A stretch of 64,000 bases of DNA, from the NCBI RefSeq assembly GCF_030384885.1, contig NZ_CP128613.1; one strand, 5' to 3'. Below the pieces are notes generated by a model, which saw only the letters and a program-made list of their open reading frames with translations, did no database searches and was not told where the DNA came from. Shown piece by piece: positions 52,874 to 61,990 of this stretch. The translations under genes were made by a program, and so were the position numbers. The first letter of the stretch is position 1; each line of letters starts with the position of its first letter. The DNA comes from Escherichia coli. GTDB lineage: Bacteria; Pseudomonadota; Gammaproteobacteria; Enterobacterales; Enterobacteriaceae.

Positions 52874-53404
52874 TCACACCAGATAATCAATATGCTGATG
52901 GCGTACCAACTCATTGATCCGCTTAAGATTGAGGATCATCATGATATTGTGTTTATGGCAGTAGAACGTTTTTAGCGATATTTTCAGTTTCTCCAGAATA
53001 TCTTCCGTTGTCATTTGATTCGCAATACAGCTTAGAACCTGATGCTGCTTGCGCGAAAGGGACACATCCGCTTCAGGCACAGAGCAGTAACTGCCATTGA
53101 TGAGTGCGACAAAGTCGATGATGGTGATAGTTCGCGGAACAAAGGTCACCGGTACTTTCCCCAGGCAGCGTTTAATATTAAAGGGAGAGAAAATAATCAC
53201 ATGGACAGGTTTTAATCGTTCAATCTGAGTGAGCAAATTAGAATGAAATACATTATTCATTAATGTATCAATAATGACGAAGGCATGCTGATGCAACATT
53301 ACGTCGATCTCTTCTTCGTTCTGTATATGAACGACATTACCTTTGCTCAGAATGTTTTTCATCGCAGTGAAGAACATCGTATCCCTGGTAATTATAAGAA
53401 ACAT
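52874..53404 (-). CDS. dctR: LuxR-family regulator DctR/YhiF (176 aa)
   Basis: ORF track; C-terminal LuxR HTH. Confidence 0.9.
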   Translation of the reverse strand: MFLIITRDTMFFTAMKNILSKGNVVHIQNEEEIDVMLHQHAFVIIDTLMNNVFHSNLLTQIERLKPVHVIIFSPFNIKRCLGKVPVTFVPRTITIIDFVALINGSYCSVPEADVSLSRKQHQVLSCIANQMTTEDILEKLKISLKTFYCHKHNIMMILNLKRINELVRHQHIDYLV

Positions 53405-53556
53405 AACCGACTCCTGGTGCGGACATTAACTTTATAATCAGTTTGCCAAAGGTAATTAACAGGACAGGGCTTATAATAATAGTTAGCTGGCTGTGTATTA
53501 ATTTGATGCAATGCATGATGCAGATGCTGAGAAAGCATCTGCATCTCTCGGTGGTG

Positions 53557-54123
53557 TTATTTGACCAGCTCAGGTGTTACTTGACTCACCGCATTGGTGT
53601 AGTAAGGCGCGCCCCAGCCCGGTTCCGGCCAGAATGCACCATAGCCGTAATCCCACAGGTTATAGGTGGTATTAACCACTTCTCTCAAATGCCACACCTG
53701 GATGCCCTGCATATTCACTTCCAGGAAGTTATACGGGACTTTATTGATAAAGCCAGGTTGTTCACCCTGAATGGTACCGAGGATGGTAACAAAGTGATTA
53801 CGATAGTTCACTGGATCAAGGAAGCCGCTTTGTCTGGCGAGCAGTCGGCCCTGATAGTTGGCTTCAATATCAGGCTTCGCATAGCTATCCAACGGTAATA
53901 CAGCGATTTCTAACAACGTATCCGTTTTGCCATTGATAACGTTGATAACCTTCCCGCCAAAGCGCGCTTGTTGACCAACATATAACCCCGGCTGGTTATG
54001 AACAGCAACAAAACTTTTTTGAATATCAGGTTGGTTATTGCCTTTGATATTTTGCGGAATTGAACTACATGCGGCAAGCAAAAATGAAAGGCTGAGGATG
54101 AGTGCACCTTTTGTCATGTTCAT
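53557..54123 (-). CDS. slp: Outer-membrane starvation lipoprotein Slp (188 aa)
   Basis: ATG at 54123 (MNMTKGALILSLSFLLAACSS lipobox) inside track ORF 53557..54342. Confidence 0.9.
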   Translation of the reverse strand: MNMTKGALILSLSFLLAACSSIPQNIKGNNQPDIQKSFVAVHNQPGLYVGQQARFGGKVINVINGKTDTLLEIAVLPLDSYAKPDIEANYQGRLLARQSGFLDPVNYRNHFVTILGTIQGEQPGFINKVPYNFLEVNMQGIQVWHLREVVNTTYNLWDYGYGAFWPEPGWGAPYYTNAVSQVTPELVK

Positions 54124-54368
54124 GTTACTATCCTTATCAACAAATATTAAAACCATAATAGATATTTCTTTATAGTTTTCATCTGATTCTGAGGCGATAT
54201 GCCTGATAGTAACGTAAACCTGTCTGATGTTTATATCCATTCTGTTTAGTTTAATTCTGTTAATTTTGGGGCGTGACATGAGTATCCATCGCCCCATAAA
54301 ATAGCCTTTTTTTAAAGGTACATAAAATCTATTTTTATTCAATGCTTATAAAGCGCTAATGTTCAATA

Positions 54369-55592
54369 TTATGGGATTATATTCTGGTAATGATTTGATA
54401 AGCGAATTCTTTTGCCAGTTGATATTTCTATTTCCACCCCATAATTTATAGTTTTTTCATCAGGTAGCGATCTCTTTAAATAAGGTGCGTATGACATTTT
54501 TTTAGGATGAAACGTATCGTGTTGAAATATTTCGAATTGATATTCAGACATTTGTGCCCATGTTTGAATTTTATTGTATCGGGAGAGTGTCGTAAAGGCT
54601 TTAACTTGCTTATAACATTGTTTTTGGAATTCTTGCTGATATTTTAATATGTCGTTGTATGAAAGATTGGTTATCCTGGCCTCTAAAAACTTAATTATCG
54701 TCGAAGCAACTTCAGCTTTTGCTCGTAAAAAGTTGTCATTAATGGTTAATAATGTTGAAAATAAACCTTCAATTTGTTTGTCAAGATATTGTTCATCTTT
54801 ATATAATTTATGGGTAGGGTGTTCCTTATGTGAAAAAATAGTGTCACATAAATTTGCGTCAGTGAAATTTATATTAAGTAGATCTTCGAAATAAAACCTT
54901 GACAAGGTTAGAACGAACCCGGACAGGTTCTGTCCTGTCATATTGAAATCAATAAAGTTGGTTCCGGCAAAGACTTTCATTCTGTTTTTATTTTCACTGT
55001 GCTCAATATATAACTTCGTCATTTTTTGATACAGGCTTTGAATATCTTTTATATTAGTTGGTAAGTCAGCTCGTTGTTCAGCAATAAAATTAGTATCTGA
55101 AAACATGGTTTGGACACTGAATGTTATGGGTATTCCCTCTTCTACGCTAATTTTAGTTATGATTGCCTTGTCGGGTTTAGGATTAGCGACAACAATGATT
55201 CGACATTCAGCACTTTTGTTCTTTTCGTATCTAATGTTATTAATCTGATTAAGTATTGATTGTGTCTGTTGCGTAAGTGGTGTCGAACTTATCGTTTCAA
55301 TGTTATTAATAAGTTTTACAAGTTGAGCCACAACTTTTGAGTAGTCTGCATTTGTATATGTGGTGTTCGTGTGGCACGCATTAATTTGTTGGAGTTGTTG
55401 TTGCGCTAAATCAAATTGTTCAGCGTTATATCCTTCTTCAGACAATGAAAAATTAATGGGTTGCTGTTCTTCCTGATTATCACAAGGCCACATCGGTGTG
55501 TTTGGTGTTTTAATATTGTCGGTATCTGTTGTGCGGTTATAAATATCGCCGTGATATGTATTTATCATACCTGGGGTAAAGTCAATTGACAT
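54369..55592 (-). CDS. yhiS: YhiS-like protein, intact (407 aa), pentapeptide-repeat-like central region
   Basis: ORF track; AT-rich; position between slp and ars region corresponds to yhiS, which in K-12 is split by IS5; no IS seen here. Confidence 0.7.
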
Positions 55593-56172
55593 AACATTCC
55601 TTATTGTTCATCTATTTCGCTAAATTTTTGCAAATCGGAGAATTAGAACAGGAATGGATTTTCTTCTACGCGGAAATAAACACAATGCGTCATATCTTCC
55701 TGATATAATTACCTTTAACTTCCCTTTCATTTCCACCCGGTAATATTTGTGTATAAAAAAAGGGCAGTGATAGTATCGTAAAGGAAAACATTAACAACTA
55801 TCAAAAAGCGCTCATTTTAAAAAGTTATGATGTTCTCCGATAGTGTGTGAAGTGATATTTTTGTGATGTTTTAGATGTGTAATAATGAACCAGGTTAAAG
55901 TGTATTTAAAAATGTGTTGTATTGGCGACTGAAATCTGCCCTTTAAAAGGGGGGATAGCACTGAGACAAAGAGGCATTGCTTCTCCGATAAAATGTCAGA
56001 GAAGCATGATTGCGTGGTGATTGTCGATTGATGACTTACTGACGGATCCGTCATCATTCTCAAAGCATTAGTTAAGTTATTTGTGATTTTTAAGGATTAT
56101 CCTATCTATGATTTTCTACTCAGAAGGATAAGGCACTCACAATGCTCCTTATAGTTTACTGCTGGCATCTAT

Positions 56173-57186
56173 TTAAAATAGCATTTGAGTCAAATAGCCC
56201 ATCAAGATAGCCATACCTAAGATAACCGTCAGGAATGCAACTATCATCGGTATTCTGAACATTGATTTAAGTAATATCACTTCCGTCAGACTTGCGCCGG
56301 CACTGCCGATGATTAATGCCATTAATGCTCCCAGACCCATTCCTTTTGTCATCAGAACAGATGCCAGAGGGATAACCGCCTCTGCCCGGATATACAGCGG
56401 GATTCCGACAACGGCGCTCAATGGGATGGCGAAGGGATTATCTGCCCCTGCATGAGCGGCAATCCACGCTGAGGGAATAAAGCCATAAATAAAAGAGCCT
56501 ATTAATACCCCTAACAAAAGATATGGCAGTACATCTTTAAACTGTTGCAACGCATCTTTGGTGGCTAGTTTTATGGGATTAATACTTACCACAGCTTTGG
56601 TACTGCAACAGTTTACTACCGGTTTCTCAATGGCTTTAGCCGCTGGACTACAGCAACTCACTTTTATTGGCGTATATGTCGTCCCCGGCGAAGTTTTGGC
56701 TGGAGAGCAACAATTTGCTGATGAGCTTTTACTGGCAATGATATGACGTTCAAATCTCAGAGAATCCAGGATAATACTGGCAAGTACGGAGACGCCGGCG
56801 GCGATAATCGCGTACAACAAGGTAACTTTCCAACCAAAGGTCACCCACATTAACCCGACGATAATGGGATTAAGTAACGGTGAAACAAATAAAAAAGTGA
56901 GAGTCGGACCAAACCCGGCTTTCGCTGACAACAATCCACGTAGCATGGGTATTGTCGAGCAACTACAGAACGGGGTAACGGCTCCCAACAGAGCAGCCAG
57001 GAGATAGCCTCTCCCTTTTCTGGCCCCCATCATCTGCTGGATTTTATGGTCTGGCACCTTTTGTCTTATCAGGCTGACACCGGCACTAATCACCATAAAC
57101 AGCAAAGAAAGCTCGACGGCGAGAAACACAAACATCTCTGCGGCATCTTGCAGCATCGCAAGCCAACTACTCATAAGTAACCTCAT
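56173..57186 (-). CDS. DUF318/ArsP-like permease with TPFCSCS motif and Cys-rich loop (337 aa)
   Basis: ORF track; multi-TM; motif GAVTPFCSCSTIPM; loop with three CC pairs; divergent from an ArsR-family regulator. Confidence 0.65.
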   Translation of the reverse strand: MRLLMSSWLAMLQDAAEMFVFLAVELSLLFMVISAGVSLIRQKVPDHKIQQMMGARKGRGYLLAALLGAVTPFCSCSTIPMLRGLLSAKAGFGPTLTFLFVSPLLNPIIVGLMWVTFGWKVTLLYAIIAAGVSVLASIILDSLRFERHIIASKSSSANCCSPAKTSPGTTYTPIKVSCCSPAAKAIEKPVVNCCSTKAVVSINPIKLATKDALQQFKDVLPYLLLGVLIGSFIYGFIPSAWIAAHAGADNPFAIPLSAVVGIPLYIRAEAVIPLASVLMTKGMGLGALMALIIGSAGASLTEVILLKSMFRIPMIVAFLTVILGMAILMGYLTQMLF

Positions 57187-57281
57187 TGAATAAAACTATA
57201 TTTCCAGAATAATCGAAATGAAGTTCAGATCAAGATATTTCTGGTATTATCGAAATATCAACCAGACAGAGGGGGTGACAC

Positions 57282-57602
57282 ATGCAATTGGAAGAGGTCG
57301 CTAAGGCACTGAAAGAGTTAGGTCATCCGACCCGTTTGTTCATATTTAAGCATCTGGTCAAAGCGGGGGAACAAGGGTTGCCGGTCGGTGAGTTGCAAAA
57401 GCAGCTTGGGATACCCGGCTCTACACTCAGTCACCATATTTCAGCACTGGTATCGGTAGGGTTGGTCAAACAAAACCGTGAGAGTCGGACGCTGATGTGT
57501 GTTTCGCAATACGCAATGCTGGAAGCGATAATTGAATTTTTATGTGAGGAGTGCTGCGTAAACAGCAAAACAGATGGCGAAGGAGCCACGAAGAACAAAT
57601 AA
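57282..57602 (+). CDS. ArsR/SmtB-family metalloregulatory transcriptional repressor (106 aa)
   Basis: HTH signature (LGHPTRLFIFKHL...VGELQKQLGIPGSTLSHHISAL) and C-terminal CEECC cysteine cluster. Confidence 0.7.
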   Translation: MQLEEVAKALKELGHPTRLFIFKHLVKAGEQGLPVGELQKQLGIPGSTLSHHISALVSVGLVKQNRESRTLMCVSQYAMLEAIIEFLCEECCVNSKTDGEGATKNK

Positions 57603-57622
57603 GGGGGCATATCCCCCTATAG

Positions 57623-58048
57623 TTATTTCAGGCGTTTACCCGCTTCATCAACCACTTTTTCGCCATCTTCCTTGGTGAACGCGCCTTGTTGCGCATCTGG
57701 CAGAATTTCCAGCACCACTTCTGAAGGGCGGCACAGGCGAGTTCCTAGCGGCGTCACCACAATCGGGCGATTAATCAGAATCGGGTGCTGAAGCATAAAG
57801 TCGATTAACCGATCGTCAGTAAATTTATCTTCTGCAAGGCCCAGTTCCTCATACGGCTCGACGTTTTTACGCAACAGCGCGCGTACGGAAATCCCCATAT
57901 CGGCAATGAGTTTGACCAGCTCATCGCGCGTTGGCGGTGTTTCCAGATAATAGATAATGGTCGGTTCTGTACCGCTGTTGCGGATCATCTCCAGCGTATT
58001 ACGCGACGTGCCGCAGGCCGGGTTGTGATAAATAGTAATGTTGCTCAT
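57623..58048 (-). CDS. arsC: Arsenate reductase ArsC (141 aa)
   Basis: ORF track; MSNITIYHNPACGTSRNTLEMIR - glutaredoxin-coupled ArsC catalytic Cys motif. Confidence 0.95.
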   Translation of the reverse strand: MSNITIYHNPACGTSRNTLEMIRNSGTEPTIIYYLETPPTRDELVKLIADMGISVRALLRKNVEPYEELGLAEDKFTDDRLIDFMLQHPILINRPIVVTPLGTRLCRPSEVVLEILPDAQQGAFTKEDGEKVVDEAGKRLK

Positions 58049-58060
58049 ATCAGTATCTCA

Positions 58061-59350
58061 TTACGATGTGAAAGAGAGACGAAGCGCCAGCGCGGTAAGC
58101 GTCACAAACAGCACCGGCAGGGTCATGATAATCCCTGTACGGAAGTAATATCCCCAGCTGATAGTCATATTCTTCTGCGAAAGTACGTGCAGCCAGAGCA
58201 GCGTTGCCAGGCTACCAATCGGTGTAATTTTCGGCCCCAAATCGCAGCCAATCACGTTGGCATAAACCATCGCTTCTTTGATGACACCAGATGCCGTGCT
58301 GCCATCAATGGACAACGCGCCAACCAGTACCGTCGGCATATTGTTCATAATAGAAGAGAGGAAGGCGGTGAGGAATCCGGTGCCGAGCGTCGCCGCCCAC
58401 AGGCCGTGATCCGCCAGCACGTTGAGTACGCCAGAAAGATATTCCGTTAGTCCGGCATTGCGCAGGCCGTAAACCACCAGATACATGCCGAGCGAGAAGA
58501 TGACAATCTGCCAGGGGGCACCGCGCAGCACTTTACCCGTATTAATCGCATGGCCGCGTTTAGCGACGGCAAATAATATCAGCGCGCCTACTGCCGCAAT
58601 GGCGCTTACCGGAATGCCGAGCGGTTCCAGGACGAAAAATCCCACCAGCAGAAGCAGTAAAACAACCCAGCCAGTTTTGAAGGTGGCAGGATCTTTAACC
58701 GCTTCTACGGGAGATTTAAGCAGCGCCATGTCGTAGTTCTGCGGAATATCTTTGCGGAAATAGAGATGCAACATCACCAGGGTAGCCAGTATTGCAGCGA
58801 TATCCACCGGCACCATCACCGAGGCATATTCGCGAAAACCAAGGCCAAAGAAATCTGCTGAAACGATATTCACCAGGTTAGAGACAATAAGCGGCAGACT
58901 GGCGGTATCGGCAATGAATCCGGCCGCCATAACAAACGCCAGCGTAGTGCCTTTGCTGAACCCTAAAGCCAGCAGCATGGCGATGACAATCGGCGTCAAA
59001 ATAAGCGCCGCACCATCATTGGCAAACAGGGCAGCAACGGTAGCACCGAGCAGGACAATCCAGGTAAACAGCAAGCGACCGCGCCCATTGCCCCAGCGTG
59101 AGACGTGCAGTGCCGCCCATTCAAAAAAGCCGGACTCATCCAGCAGCAGGCTGATGATAATGACGGCAATAAACGCAGCCGTCGCGTTCCAGACGATATT
59201 CCACACCACCGGAATATCGCCCGGATGGACCACGCCAGTAACTAACGCCAGTACGGCGCCCAGTGTCGCACTCCAGCCGATGCCTAAACCTTTCGGCTGC
59301 CAGATAACCAATACGATGGTCAGGACAAAGATAGCGCCCGCCAGTAACAT
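58061..59350 (-). CDS. arsB: Arsenite efflux pump ArsB (429 aa)
   Basis: ATG ([11 protein letters not shown]...) inside track ORF 58061..59371. Confidence 0.9.
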
Positions 59351-59404
59351 CATGCCTCCTGGATAAAACACATTCGAATATTCATATGTGTTTAGATAAA
59401 TTTT

Positions 59405-59758
59405 TTAACTACAAATATTCTTACTGTCTGCGGAACAATTTTGTCTGACGAGGTTACGGACAATCACCTGAACCTTTTCCTGTTCGCATCGCCAGGCCTG
59501 CTCAATAATTTTCGCCGCCCATGCTGGAATATGCGGCGATAAGCGATAATGAACCCACTTACCCTGCTTGCGGTCCAGCAATAGCCCACTTTCACGCAGT
59601 AATGCCAGATGGCGGGAGATCTTGGGCTGCGACTGATCGAGGGCAGTGCAGAGATCGCAGACGCATAACTCTCCCAGTTCGCTGAGCAGTAAAACGATGC
59701 CCAGACGGGTTTCATCGGCAAGAATTTTGAACAATTGGATGGGTAACAGAAATGACAT
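59405..59758 (-). CDS. arsR: Arsenical resistance operon repressor ArsR (117 aa)
   Basis: ORF track; ELCVCDLC metal-binding motif plus HTH. Confidence 0.95.
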   Translation of the reverse strand: MSFLLPIQLFKILADETRLGIVLLLSELGELCVCDLCTALDQSQPKISRHLALLRESGLLLDRKQGKWVHYRLSPHIPAWAAKIIEQAWRCEQEKVQVIVRNLVRQNCSADSKNICS

Positions 59759-59911
59759 ATTGCGCTCCTGATTGTTGCAGGTAGTGTCTCTCTTCGAAGC
59801 GGATAAGTCAAAAACATATATGTTTTAACGAATGTGTAAGTGCAGAGGAAGGTAATAGGTGTGAATTAAGCGTTGGGTGTTCATTTGAAAGGAAGTCTGA
59901 ATCAGGATGTA

Positions 59912-60005
59912 AAAAAACCGACTTTGCGTCGGTTTTTTACTCTTCAGCCAGAGTTGGTGGCTCTGGCTGGAGTGAGAATGCCCACATCTAACGGTTCAAT
60001 ACTAT
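59912..60005 (-). ncRNA. agrB: AgrB-like sRNA (antisense regulator of dinQ); ends approximate
   Basis: Repeat unit 'ggctctggctggagtgaga-tgcccacatctaac' whose minus-strand transcript is complementary to the dinQ leader copy at ~60395-60430; ends in hairpin ccgac-gcaaa-gtcgg plus T-run. Confidence 0.45.
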
Positions 60006-60147
60006 TAGCCAGTGGCTAACATTGCAAGCGTTAGCGATTTCTTCAGCTGGCGAAGGGACAGTTTGCTATACATGGTGGTGAAAGAGGATTGATATACTTT
60101 CATCGGGTCGCTGCCGTACCAAGCCTTGTCCGAATCCGGACGTAAAA

Positions 60148-60240
60148 AAACCGACTTCGCGTCGGTTTTTTTACTCTTCAGCCCAGAATTGGTGGCTCTG
60201 GCTGGAGTGAGATAGCCATCATCTAACACATCAATGCTAA
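60148..60240 (-). ncRNA. agrA: AgrA-like sRNA (antisense regulator of dinQ); ends approximate
   Basis: Second copy of the repeat plus the same terminator hairpin. Confidence 0.45.
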
Positions 60241-60291
60241 TACCATACTGAAACTATTGCAAGGACGTGCTGGTTTTATAACCCGCAAGTA

Positions 60292-60307
60292 CTGTATAAT
60301 TATCCAG
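60292..60307 (+). promoter_or_regulatory. LexA (SOS) box overlapping a TATAAT -10 element, upstream of dinQ
   Basis: CTGTATAATTATCCAG matches CTGT-N8-ACAG with one mismatch; TATAAT at 60295-60300. Confidence 0.6.
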
Positions 60308-60500
60308 TTAGCTCTGAGGCATTTTCACTCTGGTAATGCGCATAAACGCTTTCAAAGTCCTGGTCAGAAGTACGGGTGGTGCCGTTAACTGATGCTCTGG
60401 CCGGAGTGAGATTGCCCACATCTAACAATGAGGCATGCGCCGTGACAGGCAGTGGATGAGTAAGCGGATGCATTCTCACTCCATCGCATGGAGAAAACGG

Positions 60501-60584
60501 GTGATTGATAAAGCAATCATCGTTCTTGGGGCGTTAATTGCGCTGATGGAACTGATCCGCTTCCTGCTTCAGCTTCTGAACTGA
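60501..60584 (+). CDS. dinQ: SOS-induced type I toxin peptide DinQ (27 aa, GTG start)
   Basis: GTG-initiated ORF VIDKAIIVLGALIALMELIRFLLQLLN, hydrophobic single helix; followed by terminator hairpin. Confidence 0.7.
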   Translation: MIDKAIIVLGALIALMELIRFLLQLLN

Positions 60585-60601
60585 TAGCGGAAACGTAACT
60601 A

Positions 60602-60637
60602 AGGGCAAAGAGCACACCACTCTTTGCCCTTTAACAT
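60602..60637. terminator. Bidirectional terminator between dinQ and gor
   Basis: gggcaaagag-cacaccac-tctttgccc hairpin followed by T-rich tract. Confidence 0.55.
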
Positions 60638-61990
60638 TTAACGCATGGTAACGAACTCTTCTGCCGCCGTTGGGTGAATGGCGACGGTATTGTCGAAGTC
60701 TTTTTTGGTTGCGCCCATCTTCAGCGCCACTGCGAAGCCCTGCAACATTTCATCCATACCAAAGCCAATGCCGTGAATACCGACAATCTTCTCTTCCGGT
60801 CCAACGCACACCAGTTTCATGCGGCACGGCTGGCGGTGCGTGGTGACGGCGGTATACATCGCGGTGAAAGAGGATTTATACACTTTCACCTGATCGTCGC
60901 CGTATTGCTCGCGCGCCTGCGGTTCCGTTAAACCAACAGTCCCAATCGGCGGATGGCTGAAGACCACGGTCGGAATATTGCTGTAATCCAGATGCTCATC
61001 CGGCTTGTTATTAAACAGGCGTTCAGAGAGGCGGCGGCCTGCTGCAACTGCCACCGGTGTCAGTTCCACTGCGCCCGTGTTATCGCCCACCGCGTAAATA
61101 CCTTCAACGCTGGTATTTTGATATTTATCGACGACGATATAGCCTTTTTCGTTGGTTTTTACGCCAGCGGCTTCGAGGTTAATGTTGTCATTGGCAGGCT
61201 CACGACCAATCGCCCAAATCAGGCAATCCACCGTTTCACTGCGACCATCTTCCAGCTCCAGCGTCAGGCTGCCATCAGCATTTTTCACGACCGCTTTCGG
61301 GATGGCGTTGGTGTGCAACTGCGGACCTTCGGCGTTCATCACTTCGACCAGCGTTTCAGAGATCATCGGGTCGAAGCTGCGCAGCGGCGCATGTTTACGA
61401 ACAAACAGATGCGTCTTTGCGCCGAGGCCGTTAATCACACCCGCCAGTTCAACGGCGATGTAACCCGCGCCAACAACCGCTACACGCTCTGGCAAAGCAG
61501 GAAGGGCGAAGAAGCCATCGGAATCAATACCGTATTCCACGCCCGGAATATCCGGGTGGCTCGGGCGACCGCCGGTGGCGATCAGGATATGATCGGCCGT
61601 GATGGTTTCGCCGTTTACTTCAATGGTTTTGGCATCAACGAAGCGGGCAAAGCCTTTGATTACATCAACGTTATTTTTACCGAGCACGTTTTCATAGGAG
61701 GTATGAATACGGTCGATATAGGCGGTACGGCTGGCGATCAACGTTTCCCAGTTGAACTTATTGATGGTGGTATCGAAACCATAATCCGGGCCGTACATGT
61801 GGATCGCTTCACGGATTTGCGCCGCGTGCCACATCACTTTTTTCGGCACGCAGCCAACATTCACGCAGGTGCCGCCCAGTTCTTTGGCTTCAATCAGCGC
61901 GCATTTCTGACCGTACATAGCCGCGCGGTTGATGGAGGCGATACCGCCGCTGCCGCCGCCGATGGCGATGTAATCATAGTGTTTAGTCAT
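60638..61990 (-). CDS. gor: Glutathione reductase Gor (450 aa)
   Basis: ORF track; FAD/NAD-binding GxGxxG motifs and redox-active CVNVGC. Confidence 0.95.

Follow-up and report, generated by a model that had tools for sequence, protein, structure and literature searches.

In E. coli K-12, the spacer between arsC and yhiS overlaps the 'promoter island' 3648929_470, one of 78 AT-rich regions for which Panyukov and Ozoline (2013, PMC3661553) report H-NS binding and weak transcription. This island is associated with foreign genes and is marked 'A' in Table 1 of that work, denoting binding by H-NS in the ChIP-chip data of Grainger, Kahramanoglou and Oshima. A 2026 preprint lists yhiS among the high-affinity sites of StpA, with StpA alone holding the chromatin structure, and names it alongside slp-dctR. 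Over-expression of YdeO did not induce yhiS (PMC4222967), and the K-12 arsC-yhiS intergenic region is often hit in evolution experiments (PMC6928379).

We have analysed the counterpart of this spacer in a 64,000-nucleotide stretch of an E. coli chromosome (the window), and describe here its anatomy, its pattern of conservation, the polarity of its evolution and its lack of coding or known RNA genes. The order of genes, in an orientation that is the reverse of that usual for K-12, is gadE, hdeD, hdeAB, yhiD, dctR, slp, yhiS, the tract, the permease gene, arsR2, arsC, arsB, arsR, dinQ and gor. The features that frame the tract are as follows.

55593..56172, no strand: the whole tract, a co-directional spacer that follows the permease and precedes yhiS, the two genes being on the minus strand
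54369..55592, minus strand: yhiS, a 407-aa ORF with no Pfam or NCBIfam match
56173..57186, minus strand: permease of the ArsP_1 family (PF03773, E = 9.5e-53); its 3' flank makes up the tract's right half
57282-57602, plus strand: arsR2, an ArsR/SmtB-family gene for a metalloregulator-type HTH protein

The first-pass annotation had described a 580-bp AT-rich non-coding tract between yhiS and the permease, and the description is accurate: the coordinates are exact, the GC content is 35% (0.350 against 0.491 window-wide, with equally low values in just 4.3% of 580-bp windows) and the tract is free of genes. It is 100% identical to the RefSeq record of E. coli 2013C-4282, where nothing is annotated between yhiS and the permease. 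The tract is long for an E. coli spacer, and its acid-fitness neighbours are similar (gadE-hdeD, for example, is ~800 bp). Rather than a separate patch of low GC, it is the right-hand end of a ~2.4-kb block (53848-56295) that takes in yhiS; the GC content is 0.335 in the yhiS CDS, 0.323 in the yhiS-proximal 310 bp and 0.381 in the permease-proximal 270 bp. Seven A/T runs reach a length of at least five, up to A7 at 55755. The full-length tract is found in 2177 of 5426 complete E. coli genomes. We consider it likely that the tract is an ordinary composite AT-rich intergenic spacer with no gene of its own, consisting of the permease 3' flank and the control region of yhiS. The right-hand ~200-270 bp (56172 to ~55960, minus strand) would be the 3' untranslated flank of the permease, and the left-hand ~310-370 bp would hold the promoter and leader of yhiS, up to the conserved ribosome-binding site and ATG. 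Together with yhiS, the tract would form a single block of low GC that closes the acid-fitness-island segment on the ars side.

The yhiS-proximal part was aligned in nine alleles, which are 75-92% identical to the window, and its features are these.

55593..55902, minus strand: putative yhiS 5' regulatory region (promoter and leader), 32% GC, 87% identical to K-12 (L002 4998-5307)
55582..55605, minus strand: yhiS translation start, with the ATG at 55592-55590 and the Shine-Dalgarno AAGGAA as the reverse complement of 55597-55602
55695..55711, plus strand: longest invariant block, TCTTCCTGATATAATTA, 17 nt, the same in all nine alleles, including one that is just 75-79% identical overall
55775..55804, minus strand: sigma-70-like match TTGATA-18-TACGAT (9/12), the only one in the yhiS sense within the tract

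Invariant columns make up 61% of the spacer and 59% of the first 200 nt of the yhiS CDS in the nine alleles, so the spacer is no freer to change than yhiS itself. The start of yhiS is nearly invariant, and the two invariant runs (55582-55594 and 55596-55605) cover the ATG and the Shine-Dalgarno sequence, lending support to the start as annotated. For a yhiS promoter, the best match, at 55775-55804, is weak (9/12) and incompletely conserved, with TGCGAT as the -10 in allele L006, and as a candidate promoter it would leave a yhiS leader of ~175 nt. A permutation test gives P~0.02 for an invariant run as long as the 17-nt block. When read on the plus strand, TCTTCCTGATATAATTA contains a perfect extended -10 (TG at 55701-55702, TATAAT at 55704-55709); in the yhiS sense it offers no good promoter. 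The block could be a fortuitous promoter of the kind found in H-NS-bound DNA, a site for a regulator of yhiS or, with a low prior, the promoter of an antisense RNA. The simple spacer model leaves the opposite-strand promoter reading of this most conserved block unexplained.

The permease-proximal part contains four elements with dyad symmetry.

55978..56006, minus strand: strong hairpin with an 11-bp stem and 7-nt loop, -16.8 kcal/mol with flanks, 167 nt past the permease stop
55940..55956, minus strand: small, weak hairpin CCCCUUUUAAAGGG (z = -0.82)
56029..56056, no strand: inverted repeat TGATGAC...GTCATCA, enclosing the 14-bp perfect palindrome TGACGGATCCGTCA at 56040-56053 (z = -1.09)
56097..56131, minus strand: hairpin just past the permease stop codon (z = -2.34), broken in E. 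whittamii

The hairpin at 55978-56006 is the most stable of these (z = -4.16; none of 200 shuffles was as stable). All 11 of its pairs are kept in five sequences, with a G-U to A-U change in E. whittamii, in which, by our reading of the alignment, the stem also gains one additional pair. The small hairpin CCCCUUUUAAAGGG shows one compensatory change from C-G to U-A among the alleles (pair 232/240: CG in two, UA in two and UG in one). The 56029-56056 repeat is not conserved: the inner palindrome has decayed in L003 and L091, and E. whittamii has lost part of it by deletion. The strong hairpin resembles a Rho-independent terminator in its GC-containing 11-bp stem, its location downstream of a stop codon and its U-containing tail in the sense of the gene; it differs in its distance from the stop and in its non-canonical tail, AAUGCCUCUUUGUCU, which is not a U run. 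A scan of the tract called no terminator, since this tail fails the rule of five U in eight. In allele L089, a different GC-rich hairpin stands at the same position and is followed by AUUUUUGUCUC in the permease sense, which is what would be expected if a permease-sense terminator matters at this site. We suggest that the 55978-56006 hairpin is probably a terminator of the permease or a stabiliser of its 3' end; it would end or stabilise the permease transcript.

The most serious alternative is a non-coding RNA, in which the extended -10 TGATATAAT (55701-55709, plus strand) drives a plus-strand transcript from ~55717 that is antisense to permease-to-yhiS read-through and to the yhiS leader and perhaps ends at the 55978-56006 hairpin. 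The perfect TGnTATAAT and the invariance of its block in nine alleles that differ by up to 25% speak for such a transcript, and the hairpin is palindromic, so either strand could use it. On the plus strand, however, the hairpin carries a C-A mismatch in the E. coli alleles and lacks a U-tail, and K-12-type genomes keep the block without the hairpin. Both strands of 53000-58500 were searched against Rfam and gave no match at E <= 1; shuffled sequences fold as well as the plus-strand RNA of the entire tract (z = 0.16) and as the yhiS-sense leader RNA (z = -0.19). The permease-sense distal RNA is moderately structured (z = -2.03), and the sole structured portion of the tract is the permease 3' flank. 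Neither of the two marks of a small RNA gene, a match to a described family or a stable, conserved fold of the transcribed strand, was found. Fortuitous promoters abound in AT-rich H-NS-bound DNA (PMC3661553), TCTTCCTGATATAATTA is equally explicable as a regulator site for yhiS, and a K-12 3'-end data set mentions neither yhiS nor arsC in its supplements (PMC7815308). We therefore regard this transcript as unlikely. A more elaborate version, in which TCTTCCTGATATAATTA is a working plus-strand promoter for a conserved yhiS-leader antisense RNA that gates yhiS together with H-NS, and in which the deletions described below reflect selection, seems to us more doubtful still. If it were true, the recurrent deletions that end in the tract would be the product of selection on a control region and not of neutral decay.

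A small protein is a much poorer explanation. Two frames come into question among the 11 ORFs of at least 20 aa that overlap the tract.

55812..56063, minus strand: 83-aa ORF with a TTG start, the frame pointed out in the first-pass annotation, not a gene; no Pfam or NCBIfam match
55690-55797, minus strand: 35-aa ORF with a TTG start, upstream of yhiS; no family match

Both are present in the window, and the second, which could be proposed as a leader peptide of yhiS, is intact in three other alleles. However, both begin with TTG, neither is preceded by an obvious Shine-Dalgarno sequence and none of the 11 ORFs is conserved, each being broken or frameshifted in some alleles. The 83-aa frame is interrupted in two of the three other full-length alleles (L003 and L091) and is removed altogether by the K-12-type deletion, while the 35-aa frame is shifted in four of nine alleles through changes in the length of A-runs. 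Since these frames are broken across alleles and have no family matches, the first-pass annotation was right to see no convincing ORF here, and we think it very improbable that either is a gene. The validated small protein YhiY was also suspected in the tract; it is located upstream of yhiI.

We attach as little probability to the idea that the tract is the scar left where a permease/ArsR module inserted beside arsRBC. The first-pass annotation had raised this possibility, and at face value the K-12 genome favours it. K-12 has a 628-bp arsC-yhiS spacer without permease and arsR2, and the module is missing from 59% of complete E. coli genomes as well; homology between K-12 and the window runs from yhiS to 55901 by BLAST and, more weakly, to ~55935 by alignment, breaking inside the tract, and resumes at 57603 beside arsC. 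The comparison with the K-12 spacer, which had been put forward as a check, speaks against insertion, as that spacer consists in part of remnants of the module. Its positions 416-628 match the last ~70 nt of arsR2 and the REP-containing spacer of strains that have the module, such as L003 (79% over 213 bp, E = 3e-49), and the K-12-type spacer also holds a 17-23-nt fragment of the permease CDS that matches window 56527-56549. A query with the K-12-type scar was matched in 3178 of 5426 complete genomes, in 2119 of them over at least 80% of the query length. A second module-less spacer, of the L089 type, has other breakpoints: window 55593-55993 is followed by the last ~70 nt of the permease (56172-56242) and then by 57564-57622, and the full junction occurs in two genomes of 5426. 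Terminal repeats and target duplications were not found, the repeat search giving short, chance-level repeats only.

The order arsRBC-arsR2-permease is colinear in E. fergusonii (L094, where arsB lacks a gene call), E. whittamii, Escherichia sp. E2562 and the divergent 'E. coli' lineage L096, and the alignment with a stretch of Citrobacter gillenii, which extends from arsB to the end of the permease, shows this order too. It follows that the module is ancestral. The K-12 type retains fragments of arsR2 and the permease, which makes it a deletion derivative. We conclude from these alignments that the permease/arsR2 pair was lost in the K-12 type and not gained in this strain, and that the left endpoint of the K-12-type deletion lies at ~55935, inside the tract. 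The gene remnants in the module-less spacers already refute the insertion reading. Of the earlier proposal of a junction, one part stands: the tract does hold a deletion endpoint, that of K-12, as well as the edge of an island; it is not the junction at which an ars module was inserted. The K-12 628-bp 'intergenic region' is partly the wreck of a permease/ArsR pair that is intact in 40% of E. coli.

Two further positions concern the island edge and the endpoints.

56172..56173, no strand: island edge, the border of a ~17.5-kb segment absent from E. fergusonii, at the permease stop codon
55895..55940, no strand: cluster of indels and endpoints, with a 9-bp indel, an 8-bp deletion in L006, the E. 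whittamii/E2562 endpoint at ~55902 and the K-12-type endpoint at ~55935

E. fergusonii L094 matches 61688-56172 at 96.3%, a match that takes in gor and ends one base beyond the permease stop; past 56172 it has 45 unrelated bases and then the treF side, at window 38692. It is without ~17.5 kb (~38.7 kb to 56172) comprising yhjA, gadA, gadXW, mdtEF, gadE, hdeD, hdeAB, yhiD, dctR, slp, yhiS and the tract. As the match stops there, the ars-side edge of the island is at 56172/56173 and the tract is island DNA. We conclude from this comparison that the junction at the right edge of the tract belongs to the yhiS/acid-fitness-island side and not to the ars module. The absence from E. fergusonii agrees with a published xenoGI analysis, which places the arrival of the acid fitness island later than the divergence of E. 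fergusonii (PMC5799925), and against E. fergusonii the segment is wider than the classical slp-to-gadA island, extending to yhjA at one end and to yhiS and the tract at the other. Citrobacter loci were tried as an outgroup for the island and gave no polarity, since the DNA downstream of the permease is unrelated.

The other neighbour of the tract has also been lost. In E. whittamii and E2562 the island is present and yhiS is missing; homology extends from the permease stop to ~55902-55903, and past ~55903 what is left of the yhiS 3' end (54463-54253) is decayed, at ~62% identity, and is colinear with the slp flank. The deletion in L096 is cleaner: it removes 54416-56052 and spares the last 47 nt of yhiS, at ~90%. 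The absence from E. whittamii had suggested insertion of a yhiS cassette at ~55902; this was rejected because E. whittamii and L096 keep yhiS 3' remnants with different breakpoints, and a plasmid search for a mobile yhiS cassette found as its sole matches chromosomes mis-filed as plasmids. By alignment, at least four independent deletions have an endpoint in the tract, two for each neighbour: those of the K-12 and L089 types on the permease side, and those of the E. whittamii/E2562 and L096 types on the yhiS side. The repeated gathering of endpoints in the tract is best explained by the dispensability of both flanking genes. Independent gene losses and deep allelic divergence make the ars-yhiS locus a small hotspot, and the IS110-family transposase found between arsC and arsR2 in some E. 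coli (L091/L092 388-1368) is a further sign that the interval is structurally unstable. The least probable explanation, that the tract is itself a decayed mobile or repeated element (an IS, MITE, REP or ERIC remnant), can appeal to IS activity nearby (IS5 in K-12 yhiS, IS1 in L008, IS110 in L091) and to the REP sequences that adjoin arsC in K-12 and L003, and is dismissed because the tract is single-copy (median one place per genome, maximum two, in 5413 genomes), is never plasmid-borne and contains only short, chance-level repeats.

Other differences were seen on the ars side. The window is closer to E. fergusonii than to K-12 in gor (98.2% against 95.3%) and arsR (97.7% against 93.5%), and its arsR2 is 99.4% identical to that of E. 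fergusonii, compared with just 80.5% for the treF side. Such closeness from gor to arsR2 (56173-61688) has the look of an exchange between species or of a deep mosaic. At 57571-57622, the window lacks the REP-containing spacer that separates arsR2 from arsC, as do E. fergusonii and ~215 E. coli genomes; the arsR2 ORF of the window is 106 aa long, against 98, and extends into the bidirectional terminator of arsC, AGGGGGCATATCCCCCT (57602-57618). The B2-like L006 and L007 are without arsR and arsB and keep arsC alone. On the island side, the chu haem-uptake genes (chuS, chuA) directly follow dctR in several lineages among L006, L007, L089, L095 and L096, where the window has yhiD and hdeBA. An ArsP_1 permease 47% identical to that of the window is present in more than 20 identical copies around the genome of Pseudomonas bharatica CSV86 (L047-L068), which suggests that it rides a multi-copy mobile element.

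The gene yhiS is confined to E. coli and Shigella; among 1.84 billion representatives, the search gave one full-length cluster at 50% identity, plus fragments. Within the species its alleles share 62-95% protein identity and are often pseudogenised. In RefSeq, yhiS is a frameshifted pseudogene in an otherwise identical strain (L001 4884-6000, corresponding to window 54476-55592; 99.974% identity over 3801 aligned positions), and the ORF in the window is intact. Residues ~205-280 of YhiS weakly resemble pentapeptide repeats (E 3e-9 to 1e-4 in the five top hits checked; E 0.008 to PDB 2f3l). PADLOC and PHROGs gave no match for YhiS, and an AlphaFold2 model built from an eight-sequence alignment was unusable (mean pLDDT 38.8).

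The remaining point is the proposal, made from composition in the first-pass annotation, that the tract is an H-NS-bound silencing or regulatory region. For the left ~310 bp this is probably correct, by orthology to the H-NS-bound island of K-12. We placed island 3648929_470 on the K-12 locus through the offset of slp between the two coordinate systems; of its length, 85 nt are the start of yhiS, 310 bp are the shared part of the spacer and 75 bp belong to the deletion scar, and the whole is equivalent to window ~55508-55935. The tract shares two properties of promoter islands: it is AT-rich over several hundred bp (GC 0.35 against 0.491), and it is associated with horizontally acquired DNA, in that E. 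fergusonii lacks the tract along with yhiS and the whole slp-gadA-yhjA segment, and yhiS is restricted to E. coli and Shigella. The proposal did not gain from the H-NS nucleation motif of Lang (TCGATAAATT-like), which is not enriched; the tract has two matches with one or two mismatches, and the window has 81 against 76 expected. The 'promoter island' property itself was not reproduced with a simple scan, as 55400-56400 contains two sigma-70 promoter-like sites against 3.5 expected, and the scan is a different and simpler algorithm than the PlatProm used to define promoter islands. Over 20 kb, 16 of the 38 sigma-70 sites fall in 54147-55804, many of them in the yhiS CDS and two at or inside the left edge of the tract.

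The occupancy by H-NS comes from the K-12 literature, and the K-12 sequence is 87% identical and lacks the right half of the tract. By analogy, the yhiS block is most likely coated by H-NS and StpA as in K-12, and we infer that it is silenced in this strain; filaments of the two proteins would keep yhiS, and the fortuitous promoters in its AT-rich DNA, largely silent. We know of no acid-stress regulator that counter-silences yhiS. Whether conserved blocks of sequence persist in H-NS-bound 'promoter islands' is a question for which the tract is a natural test case. It is otherwise of a known kind with a K-12 ortholog that is already catalogued, and its significance goes little beyond annotation; the small new details are the polarity of the permease/arsR2 loss and the exact edge of the island.

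Set against the described systems, the closest relative is K-12 island 3648929_470, the positional ortholog of ~55508-55935 at 87% identity, with the same neighbour (yhiS), low GC and island DNA; it differs by a deletion in K-12 of a further 237 bp on the permease side, which the window retains. The tract also resembles the targets of H-NS/StpA silencing in the acid fitness island, such as hdeAB, gadE and slp-dctR, being the outermost piece of the same low-GC segment that is absent from E. fergusonii, although the classical island (slp to gadA) leaves out yhiS and the tract. The comparison with gene-remnant ('graveyard') spacers applies to the relatives: the K-12-type and L089-type spacers are remnants of permease and ArsR2, and E. 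whittamii and L096 carry remnants of yhiS, whereas the window keeps the intact, undeleted state, in which the tract is the common anchor where these deletions end.
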